Assembly: GCF_011045215.1 (NCBI RefSeq)
Contig: NZ_CP049201.1
Length of the DNA stretch: 64,000 bases
Reading direction: 5' to 3' (one strand)
Source: Escherichia coli
GTDB lineage: Bacteria; Pseudomonadota; Gammaproteobacteria; Enterobacterales; Enterobacteriaceae
A program made the position numbers and the translations under genes. The notes under the pieces were generated by a model. It ran no database searches. It was given only the letters and a program-made list of their open reading frames with translations, and had not been told where the DNA came from. Of the stretch, positions 8,667 to 64,000 are shown piece after piece (the stretch's first letter is position 1; each line of letters opens with the position of its first letter).

Positions 8667-8742
<76 letters not shown>

Positions 8743-42180: not shown

Positions 42181-42642
<462 letters not shown>

Positions 42643-42663
42643 TTCGTTATTCAACGAGACGTA

Positions 42664-42695
42664 AAAACGCCGACCACTGGTCGGCGTTTTGCTTT
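42664..42695. terminator. Bidirectional intrinsic terminator between rplI and convergent yjfZ
   Basis: Stem CGCCGACCA ... TGGTCGGCG flanked by A-tract (AAAAA) on one side and T-tract (TTTTGCTTTCTATTTTT) on the other. Confidence 0.8.
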
Positions 42696-42712
42696 CTATT
42701 TTTCGTCAGGCA

Positions 42713-43507
42713 TTAATTTCGCAAGTAGATCCATTCACCATTCTCTTGTGTCCATAAGTCAGGATGGTTTGCTGGCGTTAGATACATATGAGCGCAACTG
42801 ATGTCTCGCTCCTGCGGCACTCGCTCAAAACCCAAACCCGAGTAGATTGCTGCTGAACTTGATAAGGAACGCAGACCAATTTTCAAATCATGGGGTAAAT
42901 CAGAATACGCGTTTAGCAATGCAGCAATGATGAATCCGAGGGCATTAGAAACGCCTGTAACAGTGCGAAGTTGGTCGATATAAAGATCGATTGTTGGTAG
43001 TTCAGATGACCAGCAATTAGGCATTTGGGCAGGAAGGGTTACAACGTATCCTATCGTTTGGCCGGTATAGTCTGGAGTACCATAACCAGGTCCCAAAACA
43101 ACCTCGTGTATTGTGTATCTACTGTTGGGTTCGAAGGATTCGACATCTTGCAATAAATATTTCAGTTCTGCGGTTAACCGCGCACCCGCGTAAGCTTTAT
43201 TGTATTTCTGGGCGTGAATATTATCTAATGTAGCTTCATGGTTCCATCCAAAAGAATTATCACCATTCATTGTTATTCCATCGTAAGCATTACACCTCGT
43301 CGCTAACTTATTGAATGCTTGCCAGTCTGAGAGATCTAGTTTGTGGATCTCAACAGTACGTCTGCCATCGCAATTATGATCTCTTCCACGATTTGAAAGT
43401 AATGTAGCGCGTGCGTATTGATGAAATTTTAATTTTACTGGTTTGTCGGTGGACGAAAAACGAGATAAATATGCAGGAAATGAATAAATAGTGGTTGGTA
43501 ATGTCAT
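42713..43507 (-). CDS. yjfZ: Uncharacterised protein YjfZ (DUF2686)
   Basis: 264-aa ORF in AT-rich DNA; recognised as YjfZ; no informative motifs. Confidence 0.85.
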   Translation of the reverse strand: MTLPTTIYSFPAYLSRFSSTDKPVKLKFHQYARATLLSNRGRDHNCDGRRTVEIHKLDLSDWQAFNKLATRCNAYDGITMNGDNSFGWNHEATLDNIHAQKYNKAYAGARLTAELKYLLQDVESFEPNSRYTIHEVVLGPGYGTPDYTGQTIGYVVTLPAQMPNCWSSELPTIDLYIDQLRTVTGVSNALGFIIAALLNAYSDLPHDLKIGLRSLSSSAAIYSGLGFERVPQERDISCAHMYLTPANHPDLWTQENGEWIYLRN

Positions 43508-43728
43508 TGTAATGTTACCTGTTTAATATTTTTACAAATATCGCAGCTGAATGTTCAAAGAAAAAGAATTGATATTAATAAAAATAAGTTTGTTTTCTGA
43601 AGTGGTGAAAATAGCGGATGGTGAAAGATATTAATATCAAAAATCGCTCATTATGGATATAACGATGCACCAGGGGAGAAAATGACTTCCACGCCTTACA
43701 CCGTACATTCTTGTTGTGCGGTATGTAA

Positions 43729-44078
43729 TTATTCTACGCTGTCGGTATTGGTGTATTCGTTAATCAGCAGGTTAACCAGCCACAAAAAGCCATTGAGAAA
43801 ATTATTGATTTTACATGGAATTATTATATTGCCAATCCTTGGTTTTTAAAAATTGTGCATAGTGAAAATCAAAGTAAAGGTGTGCATTATGCAAAATCAC
43901 AGCGTCTCTTAGAAATTACCCATGCGCACTTGCAGTTAATGGAATCCTTATTGGATGAAGGGAAGAAACACAATATTTTTAAGCCAGATATCGACCCATT
44001 TCAGGTGAATATTAATATTGCTGCGCTTGGGGGATATTATTTGATCAACCAGCATACGCTTGGCCTGGTTTATCCGGT
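43729..44078 (+). pseudogene. ytfA: TetR-family regulator fragment (C-terminal ligand-binding region only), apparently interrupted at its 3' end by the IS element
   Basis: Open frame from 43729 (GTG 43855 is the first listed start) encodes ...[30 protein letters not shown]...[16 protein letters not shown]..., resembling a TetR C-terminal domain; no N-terminal HTH is encoded upstream; from about 44080 the frame reads antisense through IS sequence. Confidence 0.6.
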
Positions 44079-44130
44079 GCGCCGTAAAACCCCGTCCTTC
44101 AGGGCGGGGATATACGGCGCGGTTTTCCAC

Positions 44131-44558
44131 CTAACCAGGTGTTTGCTGTTGTTCAATGTATTGACGGATGGCGGATATTGGCGCACCTCCGCAGCTACTG
44201 GCAAAATAGCCAGGACTCCACAAAACGCCTTTGTAGTAATACCTGACTGCAATATCTGGTCGATCTCGTCGCAGTAACCTACCCGATACGCCTTTGAGGC
44301 TGTTTACCAGACTGGATATCGCCAGTTTGGGAGGATAGTTAATTAACAAACGTGATCTGGTTCGCCATCCATTTCAACCAGTTCAGCTTCAAAATCAGCA
44401 CATACCTTTGAAAAGTAAGTGCGTAGTTTTTCTGTCGCGTCATGGTCAAAAATCTGGCGTCGGTATCTGGTGACAAAGACCAGGTGAACATGCATCAGGA
44501 AAACACAATGCCTTCCACGCCGGATATCGGTTTCTTTTTTCACAGACCAAAGTATCAT
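44131..44558 (-). pseudogene. tnpA: IS200/IS605 TnpA (Y1 HUH transposase), disrupted by a frameshift
   Basis: Two adjacent ORFs in different frames (44343..44558 and 44131..44349) together give a ~143-aa TnpA-like protein: ...HCVFLMHVHLVFVTRYRRQIF...EPDHV / [26 protein letters not shown]...[26 protein letters not shown]; the break is inside the HUH motif. Confidence 0.8.
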
Positions 44559-44565
44559 TTGGCCT

Positions 44566-45774
44566 GTGAAACGACTACAGGCATTTAAATTCCAGTTAAG
44601 ACCCGGTGGTCAACAGGAGCGTGAAATGAGGCGCTTCGCAGGCGCATGTCGTTTCGTTTTCAATCGTGCTCTGGCACGTCAGAATGAGAATCATGAGGCC
44701 GGTAATAAATACATCCCTTACGGGAAAATGGCTTCCTGGCTGGTTGAGTGGAAAAATGCCACTGAAACGCAATGGCTTAAAGATGCCCCGTCACAGCCAT
44801 TGCAACAGTCACTGAAAGACCTTGAGCGGGCTTACAAAAACTTCTTCCGGAAGCGGGCTGCTTTTCCCCGATTCAAAAAGCGGGGACAGAATGATGCATT
44901 CCGCTACCCGCAGGGCGTTAAGCTCGATCAGGAAAACAGTCGTATTTTTCTGCCGAAACTTGGCTGGATGCGCTACCGGAATAGCCGTCAGGTCACGGGT
45001 GTTGTGAAAAATGTCACTGTCAGCCAGTCCTGCGGTAAGTGGTACATCAGTATTCAGACTGAAAATGAAGTATCAACTCCGGTTCACCCTTCAGCATTAA
45101 TGGTCGGACTGGATGCTGGCGTGGCTAAACTCGCCACGCTGTCAGATGGCACAGTCTTTGGGCCTGTAAACAGTTTTCAGAAAAACCAGAAGACGCTGGC
45201 GAGACTTCAGCGACAGTTAAGCCGCAAGGTCAAATTCAGCAACAACTGGCAGAAGCAGAAACGCAAAATACAGCGACTGCATTCCTGTATCGCAAATATC
45301 CGCAGGGACTACCTTCACAAAGTCACAACGACCGTCAGCAAAAACCACGCAATGATAGTCATTGAGGATTTGAAGGTCAGCAACATGTCAAAGTCAGCAG
45401 CGGGTACGGTCAGCCAGCCGGGGCGCAATGTCCGGGCAAAATCAGGTTTAAACCGTTCGATACTGGATCAGAGCTGGTATGAAATGCGCCGCCAGCTTGA
45501 GTACAAGCAGCTCTGGCGTGGCGGTCAGGTGCTTGCTGTTCCGCCAGCGTACACAAGCCAGCGTTGCGCGTGCTGTGGTCATACAGCGAAAGAAAATCGC
45601 CTGTCACAAAGTAAATTCAGATGCCAGGCATGTGGATATACAGCGAACGCTGATGTAAATGGCGCTCGTAACATTTTAGCGGCGGGGCACGCCGTTCTTG
45701 CCTGTGGAGAGATGGTGCAGTCAGGCCGCCCGTTGAAGCAGGAACCCACCGAAATGATTCAGGCGACAGCCTGA
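44566..45774 (+). CDS. tnpB: TnpB (OrfB) of an IS200/IS605-family element; RuvC-like RNA-guided endonuclease family
   Basis: 402-aa ORF from GTG 44566; N-terminus [13 protein letters not shown]...[12 protein letters not shown] typical of TnpB; RuvC-I (VGLDAGV), RuvC-II (IVIEDLKV), zinc finger (CACCGH...CQACGY) and RuvC-III ([10 protein letters not shown]) all present; an alternative ATG at 44626 with an AGGAG SD would give 382 aa. Confidence 0.9.
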
Positions 45775-45908
45775 ACGTAGCAGGGATCCACGTCCTTCAG
45801 GGCGTGGAGGATGTCAACACATCAGTATGGTTTCACCCCAGGCACTGGAAGCCAGACGTAAGGTCATCAAAGAGACAATCCTTAGCTGGCTTTTGGTTGA
45901 CCCTTCAT

Positions 45909-46547
45909 CTACCGCGCACGAATAAAACTGCCATCCGGCTGGCGGGTGAACAGGACCTGTTGATTATTCCCCGTATCAATGGTTAAGCCCGTCACCACGC
46001 CGCTGGCGTTCTGGCGGATTTTCACCATCTGCCCGTTTTGCAAATTACTCAGCGGCTTACCCGCGCCTTCTACCTGCGCCATTGCATAGACATCGGTAGC
46101 GGGCAGTCCGTGGTCGCGGAACAGCTGCGCCATCGTTTTACCGGGTTCGACACGGTAAGAGCGCCATTGATTATCAATTCCGCTATCTGGCTGGAATGGT
46201 TGCGTTTGGGTAGTTTGCGGCTGTTCTTCTGGCTGGCCTTCCTGTATAGGTTCTGGAGCGACCGGAGCCACCTGATCAGGATCATTTTGTGGTGTGACTA
46301 ATTGCGCCCGCAGCTGTTCTTCTGTCGGCGGTTGTGATTGTGACTGAATATCTAACTGCGCTTCACGCGTCACCACCGGCGCGTTGAGCGTATCATCAGA
46401 TGGAAGCAGAAATCCGACCACCAATACAATGGCGGCAATAATGATCCCCCGACGATGCATCGGCGGCAGCGGGTCCATGAAGCGAAAATTGTCCGGCGCG
46501 TGCCAGACTTTCTCCAGGGTTGGTTTTAGTTCAAAGCGCCCGGGCAT
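45909..46547 (-). CDS. ytfB: Cell-division protein YtfB (OapA/LysM-like domain)
   Basis: 212 aa from [21 protein letters not shown]; TM anchor, Pro/Gln-rich linker, C-terminal OapA domain. Confidence 0.88.
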
Positions 46548-46765
46548 GGTTTCCTCCTGCTCCGCGTCTTGTTCCTCAATCATAGCCTATGAATAAGCTA
46601 ACGCTATGATGTCCGTGGTAAACCCGCCTTTATTATATTCATACGGGATATTGCTATTGTTTCTTTTTCCCCGTGATTTGTCATCATTCCCGCGACAAAG
46701 TTTTACCCAAAGAAGTGTGGCTGATATGCTGCCCGCTACTTTTATACCCTAAGAAAGGAAATACG

Positions 46766-47386
46766 ATGACCACCCCAACTTTTGACACCATCGAAGCGCA
46801 AGCAAGCTACGGCATTGGTTTGCAGGTAGGGCAACAACTGAGTGAATCTGGCCTGGAAGGGCTGCTGCCAGAAGCACTGGTTGCAGGTATTGCCGATGCG
46901 CTGGAAGGCAAACATCCGGCTGTTCCGGTTGATGTGGTGCATCGCGCGCTGCGTGAAATCCACGAGCGCGCCGATGCCGTTCGTCGTCAGCGTTTCCAGG
47001 CGATGGCTGCTGAAGGTGTGAAATACCTGGAAGAAAACGCCAAAAAAGAAGGTGTGAATAGCACCGAATCTGGCCTGCAATTCCGCGTGATCAACCAGGG
47101 TGAAGGCGCAATTCCGGCACGTACCGACCGCGTTCGTGTTCATTACACCGGTAAACTGATCGACGGCACCGTGTTTGACAGCTCCGTTGCTCGTGGTGAA
47201 CCCGCTGAATTTCCGGTTAATGGCGTGATCCCTGGCTGGATTGAAGCACTGACTCTGATGCCGGTAGGTTCTAAATGGGAACTGACTATCCCGCAGGAAC
47301 TGGCATATGGCGAGCGCGGCGCAGGCGCATCCATCCCTCCGTTCAGCACCCTGGTGTTTGAAGTCGAACTGCTGGAAATCCTCTAA
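46766..47386 (+). CDS. fklB: FKBP-type peptidyl-prolyl cis-trans isomerase FklB
   Basis: 206 aa from [20 protein letters not shown]; FKBP domain at the C-terminus. Confidence 0.93.
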
Positions 47387-47401
47387 GCAGCGCATTCTGT
47401 T

Positions 47402-47419
47402 CCCCTCGAACCAGAGGGG
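47402..47419 (+). terminator. Hairpin downstream of fklB (candidate terminator)
   Basis: CCCCTC-GAACCA-GAGGGG perfect 6-bp stem; no clear T-tract. Confidence 0.4.
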
Positions 47420-47694
47420 AGCAGGCATTCAGCAATAACCCCTTCAGTTTGCCAAACGGCGCTATTTTGTGTTGCAAAGACCCCGTAAGCGTGTATTTTT
47501 GTGAGCTGTTTCGCGTTATCACCGTGATATGACACTCACTTTAAACATAAAATTAACATTAGATCTAAATCTTAGTATTCATCCCGCGTATTGTTACCTA
47601 ATATCGATGAGTCCCGATACAGATTCGTCGTATCATAGACTGACTAAAGGCCGTAGAGCCTGAACAACACAGACAGGTACAGGAAGAAAAAAAC

Positions 47695-49107
47695 ATGGTA
47701 GATCAGGTAAAAGTCGTTGCCGATGATCAGGCTCCGGCTGAACAGTCGCTACGGCGCAATCTCACAAACCGACATATTCAGCTTATTGCCATTGGCGGTG
47801 CCATTGGTACGGGGTTGTTTATGGGGTCTGGCAAAACGATTAGCCTTGCCGGGCCGTCGATCATTTTCGTTTATATGATCATTGGTTTTATGCTCTTTTT
47901 CGTGATGCGGGCAATGGGGGAATTGCTGCTTTCGAATCTGGAATACAAATCTTTTAGTGACTTCGCTTCCGATTTACTCGGGCCGTGGGCAGGATATTTC
48001 ACCGGCTGGACTTACTGGTTCTGCTGGGTTGTAACCGGTATGGCAGACGTGGTGGCGATCACGGCTTATGCTCAGTTCTGGTTCCCCGATCTCTCCGACT
48101 GGGTCGCCTCGCTGGCGGTGATAGTGCTGCTGCTGACGCTTAACCTCGCCACCGTGAAAATGTTCGGTGAGATGGAGTTCTGGTTTGCGATGATCAAAAT
48201 CGTCGCCATTGTGTCGCTGATTGTCGTCGGCCTGGTCATGGTGGCGATGCACTTTCAGTCACCGACTGGTGTGGAAGCGTCATTCGCGCATTTGTGGAAT
48301 GACGGCGGCTGGTTCCCGAAAGGTTTAAGTGGCTTCTTTGCCGGATTCCAGATAGCGGTTTTCGCTTTCGTGGGGATTGAGCTGGTAGGTACAACAGCTG
48401 CGGAAACCAAAGATCCAGAGAAATCACTGCCACGCGCGATTAACTCCATTCCGATCCGTATCATTATGTTCTACGTCTTCGCGCTGATTGTGATTATGTC
48501 CGTGACGCCGTGGAGTTCGGTAGTCCCGGAGAAAAGCCCGTTTGTTGAACTGTTTGTGTTGGTAGGTTTGCCTGCGGCTGCCAGCGTGATCAACTTTGTG
48601 GTGCTGACCTCTGCGGCGTCTTCCGCTAACAGCGGCGTCTTCTCTACCAGCCGTATGCTGTTTGGTCTGGCGCAGGAAGGTGTGGCACCGAAAGCGTTCG
48701 CTAAACTTTCTAAGCGCGCAGTACCCGCGAAAGGGTTGACTTTCTCGTGTATCTGTCTGCTCGGCGGCGTAGTGATGTTGTATGTGAATCCTAGCGTGAT
48801 TGGCGCGTTCACGATGATTACAACCGTTTCCGCGATTCTGTTTATGTTCGTCTGGACAATTATCCTTTGCTCGTACCTGGTGTACCGCAAACAGCGTCCT
48901 CATCTGCATGAGAAGTCGATCTACAAGATGCCGCTCGGCAAGCTGATGTGCTGGGTATGTATGGCGTTCTTTGTGTTCGTGGTCGTGTTGCTGACACTGG
49001 AAGATGACACTCGCCAGGCGCTGCTGGTTACCCCGCTGTGGTTTATCGCGCTGGGGCTGGGCTGGCTGTTTATTGGTAAGAAGCGGGCTGCTGAACTGCG
49101 GAAATAA
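47695..49107 (+). CDS. cycA: D-serine / D-alanine / glycine : H+ symporter CycA (APC family)
   Basis: 470-aa ORF MVDQVKVVADDQAPAEQSLRRNLTNRHIQLIAIGGAIGTGLF... Confidence 0.95.
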   Translation: MVDQVKVVADDQAPAEQSLRRNLTNRHIQLIAIGGAIGTGLFMGSGKTISLAGPSIIFVYMIIGFMLFFVMRAMGELLLSNLEYKSFSDFASDLLGPWAGYFTGWTYWFCWVVTGMADVVAITAYAQFWFPDLSDWVASLAVIVLLLTLNLATVKMFGEMEFWFAMIKIVAIVSLIVVGLVMVAMHFQSPTGVEASFAHLWNDGGWFPKGLSGFFAGFQIAVFAFVGIELVGTTAAETKDPEKSLPRAINSIPIRIIMFYVFALIVIMSVTPWSSVVPEKSPFVELFVLVGLPAAASVINFVVLTSAASSANSGVFSTSRMLFGLAQEGVAPKAFAKLSKRAVPAKGLTFSCICLLGGVVMLYVNPSVIGAFTMITTVSAILFMFVWTIILCSYLVYRKQRPHLHEKSIYKMPLGKLMCWVCMAFFVFVVVLLTLEDDTRQALLVTPLWFIALGLGWLFIGKKRAAELRK

Positions 49108-49151
49108 CCGCATTATCATGCTGGATGGCGCAATGCCATCCAGCTTTTAGA

Positions 49152-49814
49152 TCACTCACCCGCCAGCGCGCGTGGGAACAGTACATTGTTTTCCAGGCTG
49201 ATGTGATCCATCAGGTCATCAATCAGTTCATTAATGCCGTTATACATCGCTTTCCAGGTGGTGCAGGCTTCCGGCGGCGGTGTGACGTTATTGGTAGTGT
49301 GTTTGATCACTTCCAGCAGTTCACCCGCTTCATCGTGCTCGCTTTCCATTACGCTGATTGGCCCCATTGCCTGGCTGCCCATGCCTTGTTTGATCATCGG
49401 GAAGAGGATCTGCTCTTCTTTCATCATGTGGCTGGAAAGCTCTTCATGCAGCATAGTCAGGTATTTTGTCAGCCCTTTTGGCACGCTCGGTTTGTCGGCG
49501 TGAACGCGCTCGACTTTAGTCGCTTGCAGGATCAGCTCCGGCAACTGCTCGCGGTGACGATCGTGGTAGCGCACGATGATATGGTCAATGATTTCTGCCA
49601 GCGGGGCGCTACGCCAGTCTTTCTCAATCGGTTGTTCAGCAAGCTTTGCCAGCTCAGCTTCAATGACCTCAACATTCAGCTCCTTACGTGCCGCTGCGCG
49701 CGCCAGCGTCTGCTTACCGCCACAGCAGTAATCCATATCATATTTACGAAACAGAGCTGAAGCGCGAGGAATAGAGAGCGCCAGTTCACCTAAAGGTTGG
49801 TCGCGATAAGCCAT
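49152..49814 (-). CDS. ytfE: Iron-sulfur cluster repair di-iron protein YtfE (RIC)
   Basis: 220-aa [36 protein letters not shown]... (ScdA_N plus hemerythrin-like domain). Confidence 0.95.
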
Positions 49815-49840
49815 AGCTGATACCTCATTCTTAATAAGAT

Positions 49841-49863
49841 AAGATGTATTTTAAATGCATCTT
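49841..49863. promoter_or_regulatory. NsrR operator in the ytfE promoter
   Basis: AAGATGTATTTTAAATGCATCTT: 23-bp near-perfect palindrome matching the NsrR consensus, 27 nt upstream of the ytfE start codon. Confidence 0.85.
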
Positions 49864-49921
49864 TAAGGCAAAAGCTATAACCCTTACGTAGCAGAGGCTT
49901 ATTTAACTCACTGCCAGCGTG

Positions 49922-50887
49922 TCAACTTTCTGAGACAGATTCAGTTAAAGGTTTTTCTGGTTTTGCTCTGACCGCGATGACCACGCCAATCACTAACAGC
50001 GCGATACCGCTCAGCGTCATTAGCGGCGGCATTTGCTGGCGGAGTAAAAAGGTGTACAGCAAACCTGCCAGCGTTTCGAAAACAATCAGCGGCCCGAGAA
50101 TCACTGTCGGTAATCGCTGGCTGGCGACGTTCCAGCAGAGTGCGCCAACCCATGAGCAAAGCACGGCTATCGCAATCATCAGACTAATAAACACCAGCGG
50201 ACGGGGGCCAAAGGGTAGGGAGAAGTCCGGCGTTTGCGTATTCAGCCAGTAACAAGCGACGAGATAGCCGATAAGTGAAACCGGCAGTGTGACCAGCGCC
50301 TGCGCTGTTGCCCACATCATCGGATGTTTGTCGGGATTTTCCCGCAGCCAGCGGGCGTTGCGCAGGGCATACCACGCCCAGCAGACCACGGAAACTAACG
50401 CCAGCACGATGCCAGAGGTATAACGTGCCCAGTCAAAATTGGGGAGTCCGTGGTTTAACTCAGCAATATTCACACACGCCAGGCCGATGCCAATACAAAT
50501 CAGTGCCGGGGCGAGTTTTCCCCACGCGAGTTTGCCGTCGCGCTGGCTATAAAGCAGATTGGCGAAGACGGGAATCACCACCGGCAGGGTGCCGATAATC
50601 ATCGTGGAAACAGGCGCACCAGTACGTTGAATGGCACTGGCAAGGCAGAAGTAATAGATGAGGTTGCCCATCATAGTGAGCATCAAGGCGGTAAGCCAGT
50701 CGCGACGCGCCAACTGACGCAGACGCACGCGTCCCAGCCAGGCAATGGGCAGCGCAATTAACCCTAACGCCAGATAACGCCCCATCGACTGCAACATCGC
50801 CGGGTATTCCGGCACGATCAACGGCCCGACAAAAATAAGCCCCCACATCAACCCTGCTAACAGGGCGTACAGCACGCCGCTAATCAT
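49922..50887 (-). CDS. ytfF: EamA/DMT-family inner-membrane transporter YtfF
   Basis: ORF 49922..50896 (324 aa); I have used the ATG at 50887 (321 aa, MISGVLYALLAGLMWGLIF...), but the start is uncertain by 3 codons. Confidence 0.85.
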   Translation of the reverse strand: MISGVLYALLAGLMWGLIFVGPLIVPEYPAMLQSMGRYLALGLIALPIAWLGRVRLRQLARRDWLTALMLTMMGNLIYYFCLASAIQRTGAPVSTMIIGTLPVVIPVFANLLYSQRDGKLAWGKLAPALICIGIGLACVNIAELNHGLPNFDWARYTSGIVLALVSVVCWAWYALRNARWLRENPDKHPMMWATAQALVTLPVSLIGYLVACYWLNTQTPDFSLPFGPRPLVFISLMIAIAVLCSWVGALCWNVASQRLPTVILGPLIVFETLAGLLYTFLLRQQMPPLMTLSGIALLVIGVVIAVRAKPEKPLTESVSES

Positions 50888-50994
50888 TACTGGCATCCAT
50901 TGATCTGTCAGAAGAAAGTTCAGGAAGCAGACATGATTGCTCCCGGCATTCCGTCATTATCAGAGAGGATGCGGGAGGATGCCACTTTAATTAA

Positions 50995-51855
50995 CTAGAT
51001 ATTAACATTAAAAAGATGGCTTACGCTTTCGGCTAACGTTGTCGTTGGGTGGCCAATCAATTTGCTAAGTGTTTTGCTGTCATCAAACAGACCGCCTTTC
51101 GATGCGCCAACGTCAGAATCCGCCAGCATATCCGCCAGTCCGTCGGGCAGTCCGACGCTTTTCAGTGCCGCGGCGAAATCGGCTTCGCTCAGATTTTGAT
51201 AGGTAACCTGTTTGCCGCTTTGTTTGGTCAGCTCTGCCACTAACTGTGTCAACGTCCAGGCACTATCGCCCGCCAGTTCGTAAACCTTGCCTTCGTGACC
51301 GGCTTCGCTAATCACGCGTGCCGCAGCTGCCGCATAATCTGCCCGCGTTGCTGAGGCGATTTTGCCATCGCCCGCCGCACCGATAAATACGCCGTGTTCC
51401 AGTGCTGCCGGGGCGCTGGCGAGGTAGTTTTCGCTGTACCAGCCGTTGCGCAGCAGGGTGTAAACGATGCCAGAGTCAGCCAGCATTTTCTCCGTCTCGA
51501 TGTGCTCATCGGCGAGGCCGAGCGGGGAGGTATCTGCATGTAGCAGGCTGGTATAAGCGATAAATTTCACGCCAGCCGCCTTTGCGGCATTAATAACATT
51601 ACGATGCTGCGGGGCACGTTGACCCACTTCGCTGGAAGAGATCAGCAGTAGTTTTTCCACTCCCTGAAGTGCAGATGTCAGTGCGGCTTCATCGCCGTAG
51701 TCAGCCTGACGCACGGTAATGCCTTGTGCTGCCAGGGCCTGGGCTTTTGCCGGATTACGAACGATAGCCACTATTTGGCTGGCAGGAACCGTTTTCATCA
51801 AGGATTCAATAACATAGTGACCAAGTTGGCCAGTGGCACCAGTAATAGCGATCAT
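50995..51855 (-). CDS. qorB: NAD(P)H:quinone oxidoreductase QorB (YtfG)
   Basis: 286-aa ORF with N-terminal Rossmann motif (ITGATGQLG), NmrA-like family. Confidence 0.9.
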   Translation of the reverse strand: MIAITGATGQLGHYVIESLMKTVPASQIVAIVRNPAKAQALAAQGITVRQADYGDEAALTSALQGVEKLLLISSSEVGQRAPQHRNVINAAKAAGVKFIAYTSLLHADTSPLGLADEHIETEKMLADSGIVYTLLRNGWYSENYLASAPAALEHGVFIGAAGDGKIASATRADYAAAAARVISEAGHEGKVYELAGDSAWTLTQLVAELTKQSGKQVTYQNLSEADFAAALKSVGLPDGLADMLADSDVGASKGGLFDDSKTLSKLIGHPTTTLAESVSHLFNVNI

Positions 51856-51943
51856 GGGAAGTCTCCATCGTTTTGTCTTGAGTTTAAATACGCTAACACC
51901 TAAACTTACTTTTAGTAAGTACGTACAAAAAGGTAAGTATGAA

Positions 51944-52324
51944 ATGAGTCAGGTTAGCCTGTCGCAACAACTGAAAGAGGGTAATCTCTTTGCGGAACAG
52001 TGCCCGTCGCGCGAGGTGTTGAAACACGTCACCAGCCGTTGGGGGGTGTTGATTCTGGTGGCGCTACGCGAAGGTACTCATCGCTTTAGCGACCTGCGGC
52101 GCAAAATCGGCGGGGTGAGCGAAAAGATGCTTGCGCAGTCGTTACAGGCGTTAGAACAGGATGGTTTTCTTAACCGTATCGCGTATCCGGTGGTGCCGCC
52201 GCATGTGGAATATAGCCTCACGCCGCTGGGCGAGCAGGTGAGCGAAAAGGTTGCTGCACTGGCGGACTGGATTGAGTTGAATTTGCCCGAGGTGTTGGCG
52301 GTGCGGGATGAACGTGCGGCATAA
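51944..52324 (+). CDS. ytfH: HxlR-type winged-helix transcriptional regulator YtfH
   Basis: 126 aa from MSQVSLSQQLKEGNLFAEQCPSREVL (ATG 51944); the listed 163-aa ORF extends upstream into the divergent ytfG start region. Confidence 0.85.
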   Translation: MSQVSLSQQLKEGNLFAEQCPSREVLKHVTSRWGVLILVALREGTHRFSDLRRKIGGVSEKMLAQSLQALEQDGFLNRIAYPVVPPHVEYSLTPLGEQVSEKVAALADWIELNLPEVLAVRDERAA

Positions 52325-52325
52325 C

Positions 52326-52430
52326 TGCCGGATGCGCGGCCTACGGTGTATGACTTGTAGGGCGGATAAGATGCGCCAGCATCGCATCCGCCAATAAATG
52401 CCGGATGCGGTTGATGATTTATAGGCCGAA
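52326..52430. repeat. REP-like repeat cluster downstream of ytfH
   Basis: Several GCCGGATGCG / TGTAGGGCGGATAAG ... CATCCGCC REP-type units in alternating orientation. Confidence 0.55.
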
Positions 52431-52441
52431 AAAGAAGTGTT

Positions 52442-54385
52442 TTACTTACTCAAATCCACCTGATAAATCGCAAACCCGATATCATCGGTCGCGACTTTAT
52501 TCATCGGATATTGCCCTTTCTCTTTAATAAACGCTGCGGCTTTATCTGACGGGGAAGTTTCGAAACGGATATCCAGTTTCTTATCGCCAGCAATCGGTGC
52601 TAAACGCCAGTTGTTATCTGCCGCCGGGTGAATTTCCCCCGCACGTTTCGACTCATCAGCAAACCACGCTGCCAGCACCGAGCGGTTCTCATCCGGTGAA
52701 GCAAAAGCGATATGGCTGTCGCCCGTACCGGCAAATTTGCCGCCGTAAGCGCGATAGTTATTGGTGGCAACGAGGAACATAGCGTTCGGATCAATCGGCT
52801 TGCCATTAAAGGTCAGGTTCTTAATCCTTTCCGCATTGGCATTAATCATCTGGCACTCGCCGTCATAACGGGCGGGCTGGGTAACATCAATCTGATAATT
52901 CACACCATCAATAACATCAAAGTTATAGGTGCGGAAACCGTCCCAGTTGATGAGTGACTGTGGTTTCGTGCTGTTAGGATCAATCTGGTTAAACTGTCCG
53001 GCGGAGCACTCCAGCCACTCTTTCACCTCTTTACCGCTGGCTTTCACCACAATCAGCGTATTGGGGTAGAGATAAAGATCGGCGGCATTACGGAAGGTCA
53101 ACTGGCCTTTTTCCACCTCCACATAGCTTGCCGGGTCATTTTTGCGACCACCAACTTTAAACGGTGCGGCAGCTGAAAGCACCGGCAGTTTTGCCAGATC
53201 CGGATCGCCCTGAATGTAATGCTCGACATACGCTTTTTGCGCGTTGTTCACCACCTGCACGGTCGGATCGTCCTGCACCAGCGCCAGATAGCTATACATA
53301 TTGTCGGCAGATTTACCGATTGGCTTGCTGACGAACTGGCGTGTGGCATCGTGATCGGCTTTGAGTGTTTCTACCAGCTTGCTGTCTTCCGCTGCGAGTG
53401 ATTTTTTATTAGCGATATCGTAAATCGGCCGTGCTTCCGCTTTCGCCTGCGTCACCTGCCATTTACCGCTGTCATTACTGAGTTGTAAGTCGACCACCCC
53501 AAGATGATCGCCCCACATGCCTGGCATTACCGCCGGAACACCATTCAGCGTGCCTTTGGCGATATCAGCCCCTTCGATATCAGCAAAATCTTTACCCGGG
53601 AAAACGGCGTGAGCATGGCCAAACATAATGGCGTTAACGCCCGGAATTTCACTGAGGTAATAAACTGAGTTTTCCGCCATCACTTTATACGGATCGGCAG
53701 ACAGCCCGGAATGTGCCAGAACGACAACAACATCGGCACCTTTCTCGCGCATTTCAGGCACGTATTTGCGCACGGTTTCGGTAATATCATTCACTGTCAC
53801 TTTCCCGGATAAATTAGCTTTATCCCAGCCCATGATTTGTGGCGGCACGACGCCAATATAGCCAATCTTCAGCGTCTGTTTTTTTCCGTCTTTATCGACC
53901 ACTTCGGTGTCTTTAATTAAATACGGTGTAAACATTGGCTGTTTGGTTCTGGCGTCAATGACGTTGGCATTTACATAAGGGAATTTCGCTCCTGCCAGCG
54001 CATTTTTCAGGTAATCCAGACCGTAGTTAAACTCGTGGTTGCCAAGCGTTCCGACGGTATAGTCCAGCGTATTTAATGCCTTATAGACCGGGTGAATATC
54101 ACCTGCTTTTAATCCTTTCGCCGACATGTAATCGGCCAGCGGACTCCCCTGAATCAAATCGCCGTTATCGACCAGTACGCTGTTTTTAACTTCATTGCGG
54201 GCATCGTTAATCAGGCTTGCCGTACGTACCAGTCCGAATTTTTCCGTGGCGGTGTCTTTGTAATAATCGAAATCCATCATGTTGCTATGCAGATCAGTGG
54301 TTTCCATGATACGCAGATCGACCGTCGCTGCATTCACACTGGCGGCAATCAGCGTGGCCAGGAGCGTTGCGCTAAACTTAATCAT
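52442..54385 (-). CDS. cpdB: Periplasmic 2',3'-cyclic-nucleotide 2'-phosphodiesterase / 3'-nucleotidase CpdB
   Basis: 647 aa from [28 protein letters not shown] (signal peptide); metallophosphatase plus 5'-nucleotidase C domain. Confidence 0.93.
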
Positions 54386-54574
54386 CAGGGACATCCTTTT
54401 ATCATCGGGAATACGAAAGAAAAGGGAGAATAAACGTCTTACTTATAGAACAGTGAAGAATGCCACAATTTTACGCTTTGAAAATGATGACACTATCACA
54501 GTTGGCGCATTCATTAACGATAGGGTATAAGTAAAACAATAAGTTAACACCGCTCACAGAGACGAGGTGGAGAA

Positions 54575-55315
54575 ATGTTAGATCAAGTATGCCAGCTTGC
54601 ACGGAATGCAGGCGATGCCATTATGCAGGTCTACGACGGGACGAAACCGATGGACGTCGTCAGCAAAGCGGACAATTCTCCGGTAACGGCAGCGGATATT
54701 GCCGCACACACCGTTATCATGGACGGTTTACGTACGCTGACACCGGATATTCCGGTCCTTTCTGAAGAAGATCCTCCTGGTTGGGAAGTCCGTCAGCACT
54801 GGCAGCGTTACTGGCTGGTAGACCCGCTGGATGGTACTAAAGAGTTTATTAAACGTAATGGCGAATTCACCGTTAACATTGCACTCATTGACCATGGCAA
54901 ACCGATTTTAGGTGTGGTGTATGCGCCGGTAATGAACGTAATGTACAGCGCGGCAGAAGGCAAAGCGTGGAAAGAAGAGTGCGGTGTGCGCAAGCAGATT
55001 CAGGTCCGCGATGCGCGCCCGCCGCTGGTGGTTATCAGCCGTTCCCATGCAGATGCGGAGCTGAAAGAGTATCTGCAACAGCTTGGCGAACATCAGACCA
55101 CATCCATCGGCTCTTCGCTGAAATTCTGCCTAGTGGCGGAAGGACAGGCGCAGCTGTACCCGCGCTTCGGACCAACGAATATTTGGGACACCGCCGCTGG
55201 ACATGCTGTGGCTGCAGCTGCCGGAGCGCACGTTCACGACTGGCAGGGTAAACCGCTGGATTACACTCCGCGCGAGTCGTTCCTGAATCCGGGGTTCAGA
55301 GTGTCTATTTACTAA
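54575..55315 (+). CDS. cysQ: 3'(2'),5'-bisphosphate nucleotidase CysQ
   Basis: 246-aa ORF with inositol-monophosphatase-family motifs ([12 protein letters not shown]). Confidence 0.95.
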
Positions 55316-55526
55316 ATTCAGATGGCAGAAACAGTGTATTTCCTGATTCTGCCATCCTGATTTATCCCAACCTAATAAGTTATAAATAAAAAGAGATTGT
55401 ATTTAAAGTGCAAAAATTCAATTGCTAATAAGTTACATTTTAATAATGAGCGTTTTTTGATAGTTTACTTCTATAATGAGATATTTAATGGCGACATAAA
55501 ATAACGAAATAAAATAAGGTAGCCAT

Positions 55527-56465
55527 ATGTTACCCAGGATCAGACACAATAATTTTATTGGTGCGGTGGAGTTATTTGTAAAATCATCGCATACAAAAAC
55601 ACATTTAAACAATTTTTTAAATAATATTCAGCATGCATTTAAGAAAAAAGATTGGATTTCGAATTATGATTGCCTGTTAACTTTGCGGGAGTTCTTTCGT
55701 TGCGCAACTCAGATTGATAAAGATAGTTATCAAGTGCTTTCATCAAAAAATGGAACTGTTAACGCTATGGATAAGTTTCTTATCAGTTTCAGCCTTAAAG
55801 ATAACGGTGCCGAATATACAATGACATTGCGAGGCAGTGGATTTGAATACGAAGAAATCCCCATAACAATAAATGAGTATAACTCATTCATGGATTTCAA
55901 AAACCGTGAATTTCCGTTAGAACAAAACAGACGATTGTATGCCTGGGATATTCTGCAGAAAAAACAGTCTGACATACCGAAAAGGATTAAAGGTTATATT
56001 CACCAGGCGATTGGTGACGTGTCTTTAGGTTATGCCTTATTGGAGGATATAGTAAGCAAATTAAAACGGGGTAAATTTGAACTCCAAATACCAGCAGGTG
56101 GAATTAAAGAATGCGATGGATGGTATATTTACGAAAAAATAATTGATGATAATTTTGCCATAGTCATAGAATCTTTGGGCTTTGCGCTTAAAATCTATGG
56201 AGGGGATGAACGTTTTCGTAATGGTTCCTCTGTTGTTTTGGAGGATGAAGATTACTCTCTTATTTATAATTTTCTGGTTAATGCAGGTTGCCAACAAGTC
56301 GGATTAGCCGAACAAGTGGATGCGATAGTAAGTGCGAATCTGGCCGCAGATAGTGATATTACCAAAGAAAAGATTTGCGAGAAATATAAATCGACCATTG
56401 AGGCGTTTAAAAAAGAGCAACTAGCGTTACCAGTATTAGTTCGGTGTAAGAACTCAGAGACTTAA
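55527..56465 (+). CDS. ytfI: Uncharacterised protein YtfI
   Basis: 312-aa ORF in strongly AT-rich DNA; recognised as YtfI; no known domain. Confidence 0.8.
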   Translation: MLPRIRHNNFIGAVELFVKSSHTKTHLNNFLNNIQHAFKKKDWISNYDCLLTLREFFRCATQIDKDSYQVLSSKNGTVNAMDKFLISFSLKDNGAEYTMTLRGSGFEYEEIPITINEYNSFMDFKNREFPLEQNRRLYAWDILQKKQSDIPKRIKGYIHQAIGDVSLGYALLEDIVSKLKRGKFELQIPAGGIKECDGWYIYEKIIDDNFAIVIESLGFALKIYGGDERFRNGSSVVLEDEDYSLIYNFLVNAGCQQVGLAEQVDAIVSANLAADSDITKEKICEKYKSTIEAFKKEQLALPVLVRCKNSET

Positions 56466-56527
56466 TTCCCCTATCCCATAGATAACGATAGGGGAAAATT
56501 ATTTTTGCAGAATTTATGTTATTGCCA

Positions 56528-57082
56528 TTATTTGAGCAACTTTTGCAGCAGGTCCATCACTTGCTGCACCTCTTCCTGAGTGAGCGCCCCGTCTTTGGCC
56601 CATTGCACGCGACCGTCTTTATCCAGCACCACTACAGCGGAACTTTCTTCATCCAGCTGCCAGGCACCGCGCGCGACGCCATTGCTATCGACAATAAACT
56701 GCGACCAGGGATAAAGCTTTTTATTACTCTCCAGACTGCTGCGCACAAACATCCCTGAACCCGGAATCGCGTCGTCGGTGTTAACAATGGTGGTGGTCTG
56801 GTAACGATCGTGCGGTAACTTCGCTGATTTAATCGCTTCAATCAGCGTCGCGTTTTTCTCTTTTGCAGAGGTGCGACCAGCAATATGTTGCAGTACTCGC
56901 ACTTTTCCCACTAACTGCGCGCTGTTCCAGGTTTTGTAGCTAAACTGATCTTTATCAAGCACCAACTCGCCCCGATCGGTAATGCCAATCGGCGGCACTC
57001 GCTGACCGGTTTCGAACTGATGTGCGGAAGCCATCATCGGCAGCAGCAGGCAGGTGAGTGCCAGAATCTTGCGTAGGGTCAT
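56528..57082 (-). CDS. ytfJ: Periplasmic protein YtfJ (thioredoxin-like, DUF1107)
   Basis: 184-aa ORF with signal peptide MTLRKILALTCLLLPMMASA. Confidence 0.88.
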   Translation of the reverse strand: MTLRKILALTCLLLPMMASAHQFETGQRVPPIGITDRGELVLDKDQFSYKTWNSAQLVGKVRVLQHIAGRTSAKEKNATLIEAIKSAKLPHDRYQTTTIVNTDDAIPGSGMFVRSSLESNKKLYPWSQFIVDSNGVARGAWQLDEESSAVVVLDKDGRVQWAKDGALTQEEVQQVMDLLQKLLK

Positions 57083-57406
57083 GGTGTTTCCTTCTTATGA
57101 TATGCAGGTGATCCGACCACTTGGGTCTGAGTTTTAATCATATGTGCTATTTATCGAATTTCCCGCAAGTGTGATGCCAGTTTGCGGTCAAGCGCACAAA
57201 TCATATGAAAAATGAATGCTTATACTGAAGACCGCGCTTCGGTAAAAAGATAATTCTGAATAATTGTAACCTTTAGGTAAAAAAAGTTATACGCGGTGGA
57301 AACATTGCCCGGATAGTCTATAGTCACTAAGCATTAAAATTTGCGCCTCATAATAGTTGGGCCGATTGTGGCACCGCACAGGCGTAATACTCAGCAGGAG
57401 ATAACA

Positions 57407-57613
57407 ATGAAAATTTTCCAACGGTACAACCCACTTCAGGTGGCGAAGTACGTAAAGATCCTGTTCCGTGGACGGTTATACATCAAGGACGTTGGCGCTT
57501 TTGAATTCGATAAGGGTAAGATTCTTATCCCAAAAGTGAAGGATAAGCTGCATTTGTCAGTGATGTCCGAAGTTAACCGTCAGGTTATGCGTCTGCAAAC
57601 AGAGATGGCTTAA
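57407..57613 (+). CDS. ytfK: Small protein YtfK (DUF1107)
   Basis: 68 aa from [20 protein letters not shown] (ATG 57407 with AGGAG SD); the listed 90-aa ORF is an upstream extension. Confidence 0.85.
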
Positions 57614-57636
57614 CCAAAGTGCTATGCAGTAATAAG

Positions 57637-57665
57637 ACGGCTCCTGATTCAGGAGCCGTTGATGT
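57637..57665. terminator. Bidirectional terminator between convergent ytfK and ytfL
   Basis: Stem ACGGCTCCT-GATTC-AGGAGCCGT followed by TGATGTTT. Confidence 0.65.
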
Positions 57666-57674
57666 TTCTGGGGG

Positions 57675-59018
57675 TTACGCGACGCTTTCTTCTTTATCTT
57701 TAGCGTCAGGCAGTTTTGGCGAAAGGGCTGTGGCCTTGCTGTCGATCCGGGTCACCAGCAGCTGGTCGATGCGGTAGTTATCGATATCCACCACTTCAAA
57801 TTTGTAGCCGGCGAATTTCACCGAATCGGTGCGTTTCGGGATCTTACGCAGCATAAACATCATAAAGCCGCCGATGGTTTCGTAGTTGCCCGACTGCGGG
57901 AACTCGTCAATATCCAGCACGCGCATGACGTCGTCAATCGGGGTGCCGCCGTCAATCAGCCATGAGTTCTCATCACGGGCGACAATCTGCTCTTCCAGCC
58001 CCTGGCCGACCAGATCGCCCATCAGCGTGGTCATCACGTCGTTGAGGGTGATGATCCCCACTACCAGCGCGTACTCGTTCATGATCACCGCGAAGTCTTC
58101 ACCTGCGGTTTTAAAACTTTCCAACGCCTCTGAAAGGGTTAACGTATCCGGCACAATCAGCGTGTTGCGAATTTGTACGCCGCTGTTCAGTGCCAGGCTT
58201 TGGTTAGCCAGCACGCGGTTCAGCAGGTCTTTAGAATCGACATAACCGATGATGTGGTCAATATCTTCATTACAGACGAGGAACTTAGAGTGCGGATGTT
58301 CCGCCACTTTATTCTTCAGACTTTGCTCATCTTCGTGGAGATCAAACCAAATCACGTTTTCACGCGGTGTCATTGACGACGGAACGGTACGGGATTCCAG
58401 CTCAAAGACGTTTTCAATCAGCTCGTGTTCCTGTTTACGTAACACGCCCGCCAGCGCACCGGCTTCCACTACCGCGTAGATGTCATCAGAAGTGATGTCA
58501 TCTTTACGTACCATTGGCAGTTTGAAAATACGGAAGATTATGTTCGCCAGGCCGTTGAAGAACCACACCAGCGGGGTGCAAACGTACAGGCAGAAGCGCA
58601 TCGGGTTGATGATACGCAAAGCCACCGCTTCTGGCGCAATCATACCGATGCGTTTCGGGGTTAAATCCGCAAACAGGATAAACATGCCAGTCACTAACGA
58701 GAAAGAGAGAATAAAGCTCAGTTGCTCAGAGAGCTCTGCCGACATATAGCGGGAGAACAGGCTGTGAAAAGCTGGAGAAAATGCCGCATCACCGACGATA
58801 CCGCCGAGAATCGCCACTGCGTTCAGACCGATTTGGACCACGGTAAAGAACATGCCGGGATTTTCCTGCATATTCAGAACGCGTTGGGCATTTATATTGC
58901 CTTCATCAGCCAGCAGTTTAAGTTTGATTTTGCGTGAGGCGGCAAGCGAGATCTCGGACATCGAGAAGAACGCACTTACAGCGATCAAGCAGAGTATGAC
59001 TAAAATACTGTTTAACAT
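57675..59018 (-). CDS. ytfL: Inner-membrane protein YtfL (CNNM/TlyC family, DUF21-CBS-CorC)
   Basis: 447-aa ORF with N-terminal TM domain, CBS pair and CorC_HlyC C-terminal domain. Confidence 0.9.
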   Translation of the reverse strand: MLNSILVILCLIAVSAFFSMSEISLAASRKIKLKLLADEGNINAQRVLNMQENPGMFFTVVQIGLNAVAILGGIVGDAAFSPAFHSLFSRYMSAELSEQLSFILSFSLVTGMFILFADLTPKRIGMIAPEAVALRIINPMRFCLYVCTPLVWFFNGLANIIFRIFKLPMVRKDDITSDDIYAVVEAGALAGVLRKQEHELIENVFELESRTVPSSMTPRENVIWFDLHEDEQSLKNKVAEHPHSKFLVCNEDIDHIIGYVDSKDLLNRVLANQSLALNSGVQIRNTLIVPDTLTLSEALESFKTAGEDFAVIMNEYALVVGIITLNDVMTTLMGDLVGQGLEEQIVARDENSWLIDGGTPIDDVMRVLDIDEFPQSGNYETIGGFMMFMLRKIPKRTDSVKFAGYKFEVVDIDNYRIDQLLVTRIDSKATALSPKLPDAKDKEESVA

Positions 59019-59194
59019 ATCTTATCCGACCTTTCAGGCCAGATCCTCGGAAGGGGAAGTTGATTAATTTGTGTGAAATACACATTGAAAGCCGATTCGA
59101 AGAAAGTGAACCGGCATTTTCAGTGGCTAGTATAGCGTAAGGTACTGTAAAGTCGCCAGAGGGTTAAAATTCAGACTGCTGATAAATGCAATAC

Positions 59195-59294
59195 TGCCTG
59201 ATGCGCTATGCCGATCAGGCCTACGCAGTCCTTGCAATATATTGAATTTGGACGATTTTGTAGGCCTGGTAAGGCGTTTACGCCGCATCCGGCA
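59195..59294. repeat. BIME: two REP elements in inverted orientation
   Basis: TGCCTGATGCGCTATGCCGATCAGGCCTACG (59195-59225) and TGTAGGCCTGGTAAGGCGTTTACGCCGCATCCGGCA (59259-59294). Confidence 0.75.
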
Positions 59295-59340
59295 TAAATA
59301 AAGCGCACTTTATCAACAATCTACATTTGTACCCGTAACG

Positions 59341-60142: not shown

Positions 60143-64000
<3,858 letters not shown>

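Follow-up and report, generated by a model that had tools for sequence, protein, structure and literature searches.

The stretch of DNA examined in this work (a window of 64,000 nucleotides from Escherichia coli) contains, at positions 44074-45817 on the plus strand, a complete copy of the insertion sequence IS609 of the IS200/IS605 family, which is inserted in the ytfA pseudogene and in which tnpA is dead and tnpB is intact. We are close to certain that this is the best overall explanation of the region, and the following have been established directly: what the element is, where it ends and what it targets, the state of its genes, its absence from MG1655, its frequency in the population and the selection on tnpB. 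When the region 43500-46300 was compared with MG1655 by BLAST, it gave two collinear pieces meeting at a single MG1655 base, and the end positions, viz. 44074 (CCGGTG...) and 45817 (...GTCAA), were set by aligning the element with four IS609 copies at unrelated loci (the ydcO, yedK, yeaQ and yfeD sites), in agreement with the MG1655 breakpoints. The original prediction, made from the sequence of the window, had described an extra block at 44060-45825 with divergent tnpA (broken) and tnpB (intact) genes and matching subterminal hairpins. The ORFs, the hairpins and the BLAST comparison with MG1655 all agree with this description and the block is real, but its limits were drawn too wide by 8-14 bp at each end. 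The element measures 1744 bp in comparison to 1748 bp for canonical IS609, and the shortfall corresponds to a 4-bp deletion. At the DNA level it is 97.9-99.7% identical to other IS609 copies of E. coli (97.9% over 1744 nt for the K-12 copy), and by the ISfinder convention isoforms of an insertion sequence share >95% DNA identity. Further, the tnpA genes found at the same site in strain A30 and in O55:H7 are named 'IS200/IS605-like element IS609 family transposase' in RefSeq. Based on this naming of the orthologous tnpA and on the identity to the K-12 copy, the sequence comparisons indicate that the element is IS609 itself; hence, where it was earlier called IS609-like, the family assignment stands on profile and structure matches and the qualifier '-like' can be dropped. 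IS609 is an already known and routinely annotated insertion sequence, and what is described here is an ordinary copy of it.

Contrary to the proposed position between ytfA and ytfB, the insertion point is within the ytfA pseudogene as annotated, with 108 nt of ytfA remaining on its 3' side. The element divides ytfA into a 5' fragment at 43780..44073 (plus strand; RefSeq annotation and comparison with MG1655) and a 108-nt 3' fragment at 45818..45925 (plus strand), the latter overlapping the 3' end of ytfB, which lies on the minus strand from 45909. ytfA is a TetR/AcrR gene whose 5' end is truncated, the first ~245 nt being already gone here and in K-12 likewise; its TetR identity is taken from the RefSeq annotation of orthologues, and the peptide from 43855-44073 of the remnant gave no match in NCBIfam. 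The expectation that the element is absent from MG1655 at the same position was confirmed: the empty junction is at NC_000913.3 4427988, ytfA is unbroken in MG1655 over 4427694-4428095, and the sequence there reads GGTTTAT/CACATCAG without interruption (the stroke marks the insertion point). The displacement of cycA by about 1.7 kb away from hfq/purA, relative to MG1655, was likewise seen in this comparison. However, the element is not the only departure of the window from K-12, as the window also lacks yjeN-yjeO and carries one tRNA-Gly gene versus three in MG1655. Similarly, the element does set this strain apart from MG1655, where the site is empty, but it is a weak strain marker because 1699 of 5426 complete E. 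coli genomes (31%, about a third) carry it at ytfA. In RefSeq the occupied sites are annotated as IS609 tnpA and InsQ/TnpB. The sole IS609 copy of MG1655, for which one copy is also listed in the literature (PMC5009759), is located between ydcL and ydcO, and a literature search on IS609 and TnpB found no study of the ytfA insertion.

The ends of the element show the features by which members of the IS200/IS605 family are recognised. Terminal inverted repeats are absent, and subterminal palindromes are present at both ends on the same strand, viz. the plus or 'top' strand. At the left end, an imperfect palindrome detected by repeat analysis at 44079..44120 (plus strand; DNA fold -18.3 kcal/mol, z = -3.95) consists of an inner hairpin at 44090-44109 (CCCCGTCC-TTCA-GGGCGGGG) and an outer 8-bp stem (44079-44086 / 44113-44120), with the sequence AAAA (44086-44089) 5' of the inner stem. 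The right-end hairpin at 45788..45807 (plus strand; CCACGTCC-TTCA-GGGCGTGG; DNA fold z = -3.5, to two decimals -3.51) is placed 10 nt from the right terminus and is preceded 5' of its stem by GGAT (45784-45787). The two hairpins are direct rather than inverted copies of each other, with 19 of 21 positions equal and the 2 mismatches forming a compensatory pair. Directly 5' of the left end lies the target tetranucleotide 5'-TTAT (44070..44073, plus strand), the predicted TnpA cleavage site and predicted TnpB TAM, and the right end terminates in TCAA (45814..45817, plus strand), the predicted right cleavage site. TTAT is the only flanking sequence common to five independent insertion sites, the right flanks being variable and unrelated, and there is no target-site duplication, since the empty site in MG1655 reads TTAT/CACATC with nothing duplicated; insertion 3' of a specific tetranucleotide without duplication is again as in the family. 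Several of these features recall the Helicobacter pylori element IS608, from which the mechanism of IS200/IS605 TnpA is best known: subterminal hairpins, insertion 3' of a tetranucleotide that is not duplicated, and an identical right terminus, TCAA. However, the target of IS608 is TTAC in contrast to TTAT here, and its tnpA and tnpB are co-directional, whereas here they are divergent as in IS605. In IS608, the 4 nt that are 5' of each hairpin pair with the cleavage sites, and by analogy the pairs AAAA-TTAT and GGAT-TCAA would fit this rule. The family transposes via a single-stranded circular intermediate, and IS609 would accordingly move as single-stranded DNA ('peel and paste'); the present copy is inserted 3' of TTAT in an already inactive ytfA. 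Between the two genes, a 14-nt inverted repeat (44538..44571, no strand assigned; 13/14 complementary) spans the divergent tnpA ATG (44558) and tnpB GTG (44566), and is possibly a control site shared by both.

The tnpA pseudogene (Y1 HUH transposase; 44131..44558, minus strand), recognised from the ORF list, the alignment to the intact form and the profile NF033573, is split into two minus-strand ORFs (44343-44558 and 44131-44349). Against NCBIfam NF033573 transpos_IS200 (cut-off 55) these halves score 62 and 65 bits, one aligning to profile positions 2-59 and the other to 61-126. In comparison to the intact 143-aa tnpA of strain A30 at the same site, 4 bp have been deleted between 44349 and 44350, whereby the HUH motif H69-V-H71 becomes H-V-C-stop, the deletion hitting H71, and the C-terminal half with Tyr135 is out of frame. 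The intact orthologue aligns with the TnpA structures of IS608 and ISDra2 (IS608: 2A6O, 2VJV, E = 3e-19), which places it in the same HUH/Y1 fold family; thus the small HUH/Y1 TnpA typical of IS200/IS605 is represented here, though by a pseudogene. The tnpA gene is intact (143 aa) at the ytfA site in A30 and in O55:H7 TB182A, and for strain typing the window falls among A30, O145 and O55:H7-like strains, apart from K-12. An assembly artefact was considered as the source of the gap and was rejected, as the deletion is also present in O145 RM9872, and the other top matches extend over the same 2801 bases that the query has, which implies the deletion there also. Because of this, the deletion, on these sequence comparisons, characterises the lineage and does not stem from a read error. 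The IS609 copy of K-12 (ydcL-ydcO; tnpA/insP-ynck, insQ) has the same 1748-bp architecture with the divergent tnpA and tnpB starts 7 bp apart and the same ends, viz. a TTAT left flank and a TCAA right terminus, and it likewise combines a dead tnpA with an intact tnpB of 402 aa. However, the K-12 copy lies at a different site, and its tnpA lesion is an internal stop (PMC2891674) in contrast to the 4-bp deletion in the HUH motif seen here.

In view of the intact ends, hairpins and cleavage tetranucleotides, and of the intact tnpA at this site in A30 and TB182A, it may be asked if the copy in the window is a fully autonomous, active IS609 that excises and inserts with its own transposase. The chance of this is practically nil, as the copy here is 4 bp short within the HUH codons, its Tyr135 is out of frame and the presence of the same deletion in other genomes discounts a read error. 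The sequence thus refutes autonomy unless the tnpA frame were restored by programmed frameshifting, and we know of no such mechanism in the IS200/IS605 family. With the HUH motif destroyed and the tyrosine-bearing half frameshifted, movement of the copy by its own power would be impossible, and it is likely a non-autonomous element. Nonetheless, TnpA from another copy could still mobilise it, since the hairpins, TTAT/TCAA and AAAA/GGAT all look intact.

In contrast to tnpA, the insQ-type tnpB gene (44566..45774, plus strand; GTG start), identified from the ORF list and from profile and structure matches, is intact and encodes 402 aa. Its product retains the RuvC triad D183/E268/D363 and the zinc-finger cysteines C334, C337, C353 and C356, and it matches NF040570 guided_TnpB with 385 bits (cut-off 100) as well as the Pfam families PF01385 OrfB_IS605 (1e-33), PF07282 Cas12f1-like TNB (3e-24) and PF12323 HTH_OrfB_IS605 (3e-14). 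It can be aligned throughout (residues 3-376 with 5-374, E = 3e-54) with the TnpB of ISDra2 from Deinococcus radiodurans (PDB 8H1J, 8EXA), and the D/E/D and CxxC...CxxC residues are aligned and conserved; in complex with its ωRNA, the ISDra2 protein is the reference for RNA-guided TnpB nucleases. The expected domains, viz. HTH/WED-REC, a split RuvC with the D-E-D triad and a zinc-ribbon TNB, are all present. The NF033573, NF040570, Pfam and ISDra2 structure matches bear out the similarity of the ORFs to IS200/IS605 TnpA and TnpB on which the original prediction was based. TnpBs exapted as TldR-type regulators are nuclease-dead, and they have lost both the RuvC residues and the transposon ends. 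A domesticated, nuclease-dead TnpB of this type was rejected in the present case, where the catalytic residues and both ends are intact. IS609 TnpB is listed in PMC12781874 as one of nine purified orthologues.

Sequence variation in 13 IS609 copies indicates how the two genes have fared. The variants in tnpB (33 synonymous, 34 nonsynonymous; pN/pS 0.30, p = 2e-6 versus neutrality) and in tnpA (5 synonymous, 24 nonsynonymous; pN/pS 1.43, Fisher p = 0.003) show that tnpB is under purifying selection while tnpA drifts, the estimate being one from 13 non-independent copies that ignores transition/transversion bias. The full 402-aa tnpB frame is present in 11 of the 13 copies and the catalytic residues are all kept, whereas tnpA has decayed in 9 of them by lesions that differ between lineages. 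It should be noted that tnpB is not always intact at the ytfA site: in strain 146 it carries an 11-bp frameshift, and in EH53 an early stop codon close to the C-terminus cuts the frame short. These observations bear on the view that the element is an inert relic, in which tnpB is open merely by chance and its protein and RNA do nothing in this strain. The location in a pseudogene, and hence neutrality for the host, the decay of tnpA in most of the sampled copies, the broken tnpB of strain 146 and the zero transposition of K-12 IS609 in mutation-accumulation lines (PMC5009759) would all be in accordance with it. However, the bias of tnpB variants towards synonymous changes, unlike the adjacent tnpA, and the retention of the full frame and catalytic residues make this view unlikely, though it keeps some weight.

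The same selection could also be taken to suggest that the host has co-opted the element, either as a TldR-like RNA-guided regulator or through antisense transcription running from it into ytfB, which is convergent with it. The decay of tnpA besides a conserved tnpB, the presence of the element at ytfA in 31% of genomes, where it has diverged together with its flanks, and the fact that tnpB and the predicted ωRNA point at ytfB, whose 3' end is 91 bp distant, can be cited for this interpretation. However, the RuvC triad is intact, unlike that in the nuclease-dead regulators, the guide would be whatever flank comes after the right end, and two thirds of E. coli genomes lack the element at ytfA. 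Further, intact tnpB together with decayed tnpA is found at four other loci too, and therefore the selection is not tied to the ytfA locus. Co-option thus has only a very slight probability, and the preferred interpretation is still that of an IS609 copy with a dead tnpA and an intact tnpB.

If TnpB functions in this copy, it would do so with an ωRNA. As in ISDra2, tnpB extends into the right end, the part of the element from which ISDra2 produces its ωRNA, and an ωRNA (reRNA) scaffold is predicted at 45640..45817 (plus strand; 5' limit approximate), overlapping the tnpB 3' end and the right end, whose role we infer from the family. It is followed by a predicted guide region at 45818..45837 (plus strand), which is the host flank CACATCAGTATGGTTTCACC at the start of the ytfA 3' fragment. 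A permissive-threshold Rfam search of 43500-46500 gave no family above its gathering score. Three matches below threshold, viz. HgcC (E = 0.014, 23.5 bits against a cut-off of 50, far below gathering), sot0042 (17.5 bits, cut-off 88) and RAGATH-18 (25.4 bits, cut-off 44.9), span 45647-45830 on the expected strand and in the expected place. HgcC and sot0042 are TnpB-associated RNA families, and the predicted region has an RNA fold z of -2.3; these matches are supporting hints for an ωRNA that is predicted. Based on the insertion sites and the biology of ISDra2 and IS608, TTAT would serve as the TAM, in contrast to TTGAT in ISDra2. The expression of the ωRNA, the TAM, cleavage and homing form the inferred parts of our explanation, and the TnpB-ωRNA step is modelled on ISDra2 and on IS605-family elements of Geobacillus. 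TnpB would bind an ωRNA transcribed from the tnpB 3' end through the right end into the flank, and the complex would cut DNA in which TTAT is followed by the flank CACATCAGTATGG..., the predicted target being TTAT-CACATCAGTATGGTTT, i.e. an empty or excised allele. The empty allele of MG1655 carries TTAT and the predicted guide sequence. In the window, nothing comes near to this sequence except the right-end junction, but there TCAA stands in the place of TTAT beside the guide-matching flank, and thus the occupied locus is without a TAM. As the predicted target is the empty or excised allele, cutting would help the element to persist, through recombination of the cut allele with a sister copy that carries it. 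The more specific proposal that TnpB-ωRNA works in vivo even though TnpA is lacking, and thereby explains the persistence of the element, either as a selfish 'gene drive' cutting empty ytfA alleles brought in by recombination or through an RNA-guided function beneficial to the host, is an improbable one.

The empty site in MG1655 should not be interpreted as showing that ytfA was never occupied in its ancestors. Precise excision by IS200/IS605 elements would leave an empty TTAT/CAC site indistinguishable from a never-occupied one, and the ytfA-site copies differ among themselves (identity down to 97.9%) to the same degree as they differ from copies at other loci; hence the element may be ancestral at ytfA and K-12 and the other empty-site strains may have lost it by precise excision. 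A neighbour-joining tree of the 13 IS609 copies, bearing on one ancient versus repeated insertion at ytfA, gave 6-35% bootstrap support at its deep nodes and allowed no conclusion, and nothing decisive is seen for or against this reversed polarity. We consider it a reasonable possibility, though clearly the less probable one; it concerns history alone and does not alter the identity of the element as IS609.

Beyond annotation, the presence of a named insertion sequence at a site common to 31% of complete E. coli genomes is of little importance, and the 4-bp tnpA deletion, held in common with O145 RM9872, provides a finer lineage marker. However, the purifying selection on tnpB, with the decay of tnpA by lineage-specific lesions, fits the current view that TnpB is a retention factor, and should TnpB-ωRNA indeed function in the cell in the absence of TnpA, this would be a natural population-scale case of a TnpB kept by selection after the death of its transposase. 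With many occupied and empty genomes of E. coli, the ytfA locus is a convenient natural system in which TnpB retention may be tested.

When the whole window was aligned to a piece of the MG1655 chromosome (NC_000913.3 4381000-4452000), positions 8667-44074 matched MG1655 4392583-4427988 and positions 45818-64000 matched 4427988-4446197, both as collinear pieces about 98.7% identical to MG1655. As the two pieces meet at one MG1655 base (4427988), the site is empty in MG1655 and the window holds 1744 bp extra, which bears out the shift of cycA by about 1.7 kb given in the original prediction. A one-base ambiguity at the ends was settled by comparison with four IS609 copies from unrelated loci (viz. 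ydcL-ydcO in K-12, yedK, yeaR-yeaQ and gltX-yfeD). The copies compared have in common the sequence from CCGGTGCGCC... through ...GGAGGATGTCAA, and each is preceded by TTAT, whereas the sequence after the right end is unrelated between sites. Due to this, the element is placed at 44074-45817, with the target 5'-TTAT (44070-44073) adjoining its left end and TCAA as its right terminus. The empty site in MG1655 reads GGTTTAT/CACATCAGTATGG (slash, insertion point), and comparison of the flanks with this site and with other IS609 copies showed no target duplication.

With the K-12 copy, which is named IS609 and is the single IS200/IS605 element of MG1655 (PMC5009759), the element shares 97.9% identity, and where tnpA is intact at the ytfA site RefSeq labels it 'IS200/IS605-like element IS609 family transposase'; the predicted IS609-like assignment is thus upheld. 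The transposase gene of the K-12 copy was reported to contain a stop codon (PMC2891674), and an internal stop in that gene was also found here, in agreement with this report. The ORF listing, which covered 42500-47500, shows rplI (42193-42642, + strand), yjfZ (42713-43507, -), two short ORFs (44343-44558 and 44131-44349, -) that together form one tnpA gene with a frameshift, a 402-aa tnpB (44566-45774, +) and ytfB (from 45909, -), with fklB next. The start codons of the divergent genes tnpA and tnpB are 7 bp apart and are straddled by a 14-nt inverted repeat (TTTCACAGACCAAA / TTTGGCCTGTGAAA, 13/14 complementary, 44538-44571), which may be a shared control element. Both tnpB and the predicted ωRNA, the guide RNA of TnpB, point towards the 3' end of ytfB, a convergent gene (45775-45925; ytfB stop at 45909), and read-through from either would be antisense to ytfB.

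Since MG1655 carries the annotated ytfA pseudogene at 4427694-4428095, the insertion point lies inside this pseudogene, 108 nt from its 3' end, and not between ytfA and ytfB as had been thought. In element-carrying strains, RefSeq marks two TetR/AcrR fragments, one on each side of the element. Some strains, STE15 among them, have an intact 215-aa TetR gene at the ytfA position in another upstream context, due to which the K-12 arrangement seems to have arisen by deletion or replacement. In STE15 this gene (L003 1256-1903, NZ_CP095823.1) has genes for a 3-ketoacyl-ACP reductase and a sugar-phosphate isomerase upstream, not yjfZ. As the first ~245 nt of the TetR gene are missing in K-12 and the window alike, the element sits in an already dead gene, and ytfA is dead regardless of the insertion. 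Contrary to what was claimed, the element is also not the only accessory difference from K-12: yjeN and yjeO (NC_000913.3 4385305-4386046, 742 bp) have no counterpart in the window, and about 187 bp of unrelated sequence lie between yjeM and mscM (2167-2353). Further, the window has one tRNA-Gly(GCC) gene (8667-8742) where MG1655 has three in tandem, glyV-glyX-glyY.

Near each end of the element lies a 21-nt direct repeat, itself a hairpin (left, 44090-44110, CCCCGTCCTTCAGGGCGGGGA; right, 45788-45808, CCACGTCCTTCAGGGCGTGGA). The two copies differ at two positions, which form one compensatory stem pair, C-G versus A-T (44090-44109 and 45788-45807), and both, as single strands of DNA, form far more stable folds than shuffled controls (z = -3.95 and -3.51). 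Single-base changes in either stem are seen in other IS609 copies. The ORF listing, the repeats and the DNA folding thus show that the extra block, the divergent tnpA and tnpB and the matching hairpins of the original prediction are real. In IS608 and ISDra2, both TnpA cuts are on the top strand: the left-end cut comes 3' of the target tetranucleotide, and the right-end cut 3' of the terminal one. TnpA recognises each cleavage site by the tetranucleotide on the 5' side of the adjoining hairpin, the IS608 pairs being AAAG-TTAC and GAAT-TCAA. The window IS609 has AAAA for TTAT and GGAT for TCAA, in agreement with the IS608 rule, so that both ends appear fit to be mobilised by a TnpA acting in trans.

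The halves of tnpA match NF033573 'IS200/IS605 family transposase' at profile positions 2-59 and 61-126, and the 402-aa TnpB matches NF040570 'RNA-guided endonuclease TnpB family' with 385 bits (cut-off 100), so that the similarity of both ORFs to their families is confirmed. As predicted, tnpA is broken. Relative to the intact 143-aa tnpA of strain A30 at the same site, 4 bp are missing between 44349 and 44350, by which the HUH motif H69-V-H71 becomes H-V-C-stop and the reading frame is lost for the C-terminal half, in which Tyr135 lies within the conserved RQYIEQQ segment. It will be incorrect to interpret this deletion as a sequencing error, as it is also present in O145 RM9872 and the other top matches extend over 2801 bases, just as the query does; it is a lineage trait. 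Judged from its sequence, this copy is unable to transpose by itself. The tnpB gene, as predicted, is intact: besides the NF040570 match, TnpB matches the Pfam families HTH_OrfB_IS605, OrfB_IS605 and the Cas12f1-like TNB domain, its residues 3-376 match the ISDra2 TnpB structures 8H1J and 8EXA (E = 3e-54), and the RuvC acidic residues (D183, E268, D363) and zinc-finger cysteines (C334, C337, C353, C356) are conserved in that alignment.

TnpB would be guided by a predicted ωRNA that overlaps the 3' part of tnpB as well as the element's right end. At the expected position and strand there are weak, below-threshold Rfam matches to HgcC (23.5 bits, E = 0.014), sot0042 (17.5 bits) and RAGATH-18 (25.4 bits). 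HgcC and sot0042 are RNA families associated with the 3' ends of tnpB genes, and the right-end hairpin and terminus line up with the HgcC consensus CCccCGcccUUuAgggCGggGAGGAGGUCAGc. The predicted guide is the flank CACATCAGTATGGTTT..., and in MG1655 the empty allele consists of TTAT followed by exactly this flank. The sole near match to TTAT plus guide in the window is the right-end junction, and because this junction has TCAA in place of TTAT, we infer that the occupied locus would escape TnpB cutting, whereas an allele that is empty, or from which the element has been excised, would be cleaved.

In 5426 complete E. coli genomes searched by megablast with 43500-46300, the ytfA site, scored as occupied if at least 80% of the query was found in one place, is occupied in 1699 (31%). 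Virtually every genome has some IS609-like sequence, the median being 3 matching places per genome. None of the 5426 is identical to the window over this stretch, the closest being A30 (99.4%), followed by O145, O157:H16 and others (99.3%). Thus, the insertion does separate this strain from MG1655, but at such a frequency it is a weak strain marker. Among the ytfA-site copies, element divergence (0.3-2.1%) tracks flank divergence (0.6-4.1%) and is smaller than it, which fits long residence at this site; a neighbour-joining tree of IS609 copies neither supported nor excluded a single clade of ytfA-site copies. As excision in the IS200/IS605 family is precise, the junction should not be interpreted as showing either that K-12 never had the element or that it has lost it. 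The original finding is correct and ordinary, viz. a known insertion sequence with a dead transposase and an intact TnpB, which is already annotated at the same ytfA site in hundreds of public genomes.

Thirteen IS609 copies (9 at the ytfA site, 4 elsewhere) were also aligned. Of these, 9 have a damaged tnpA, with at least five distinct lesions between them (the 4-bp deletion, deletions of 1 bp, internal stops, stop-codon loss), and 11 retain the full 402-aa tnpB frame, the exceptions being strain 146, with an 11-bp deletion, and EH53, in which a stop occurs late in the gene. The copies concerned in this lesion survey come from other E. coli (L006, L007, L009 and L011-L016). In tnpB, 33 synonymous and 34 nonsynonymous variants (pN/pS 0.30) depart from neutrality (binomial p = 2e-6), whereas the 5 synonymous and 24 nonsynonymous variants of tnpA (pN/pS 1.43) do not differ from it; the two patterns differ (Fisher p = 0.003), and pairwise Nei-Gojobori dN/dS is 0.27 for tnpB and 1.0 for tnpA. 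Although 13 copies are a small, non-independent sample, the contrast between the two genes is clear and is in line with the general view of TnpB as outlasting TnpA.
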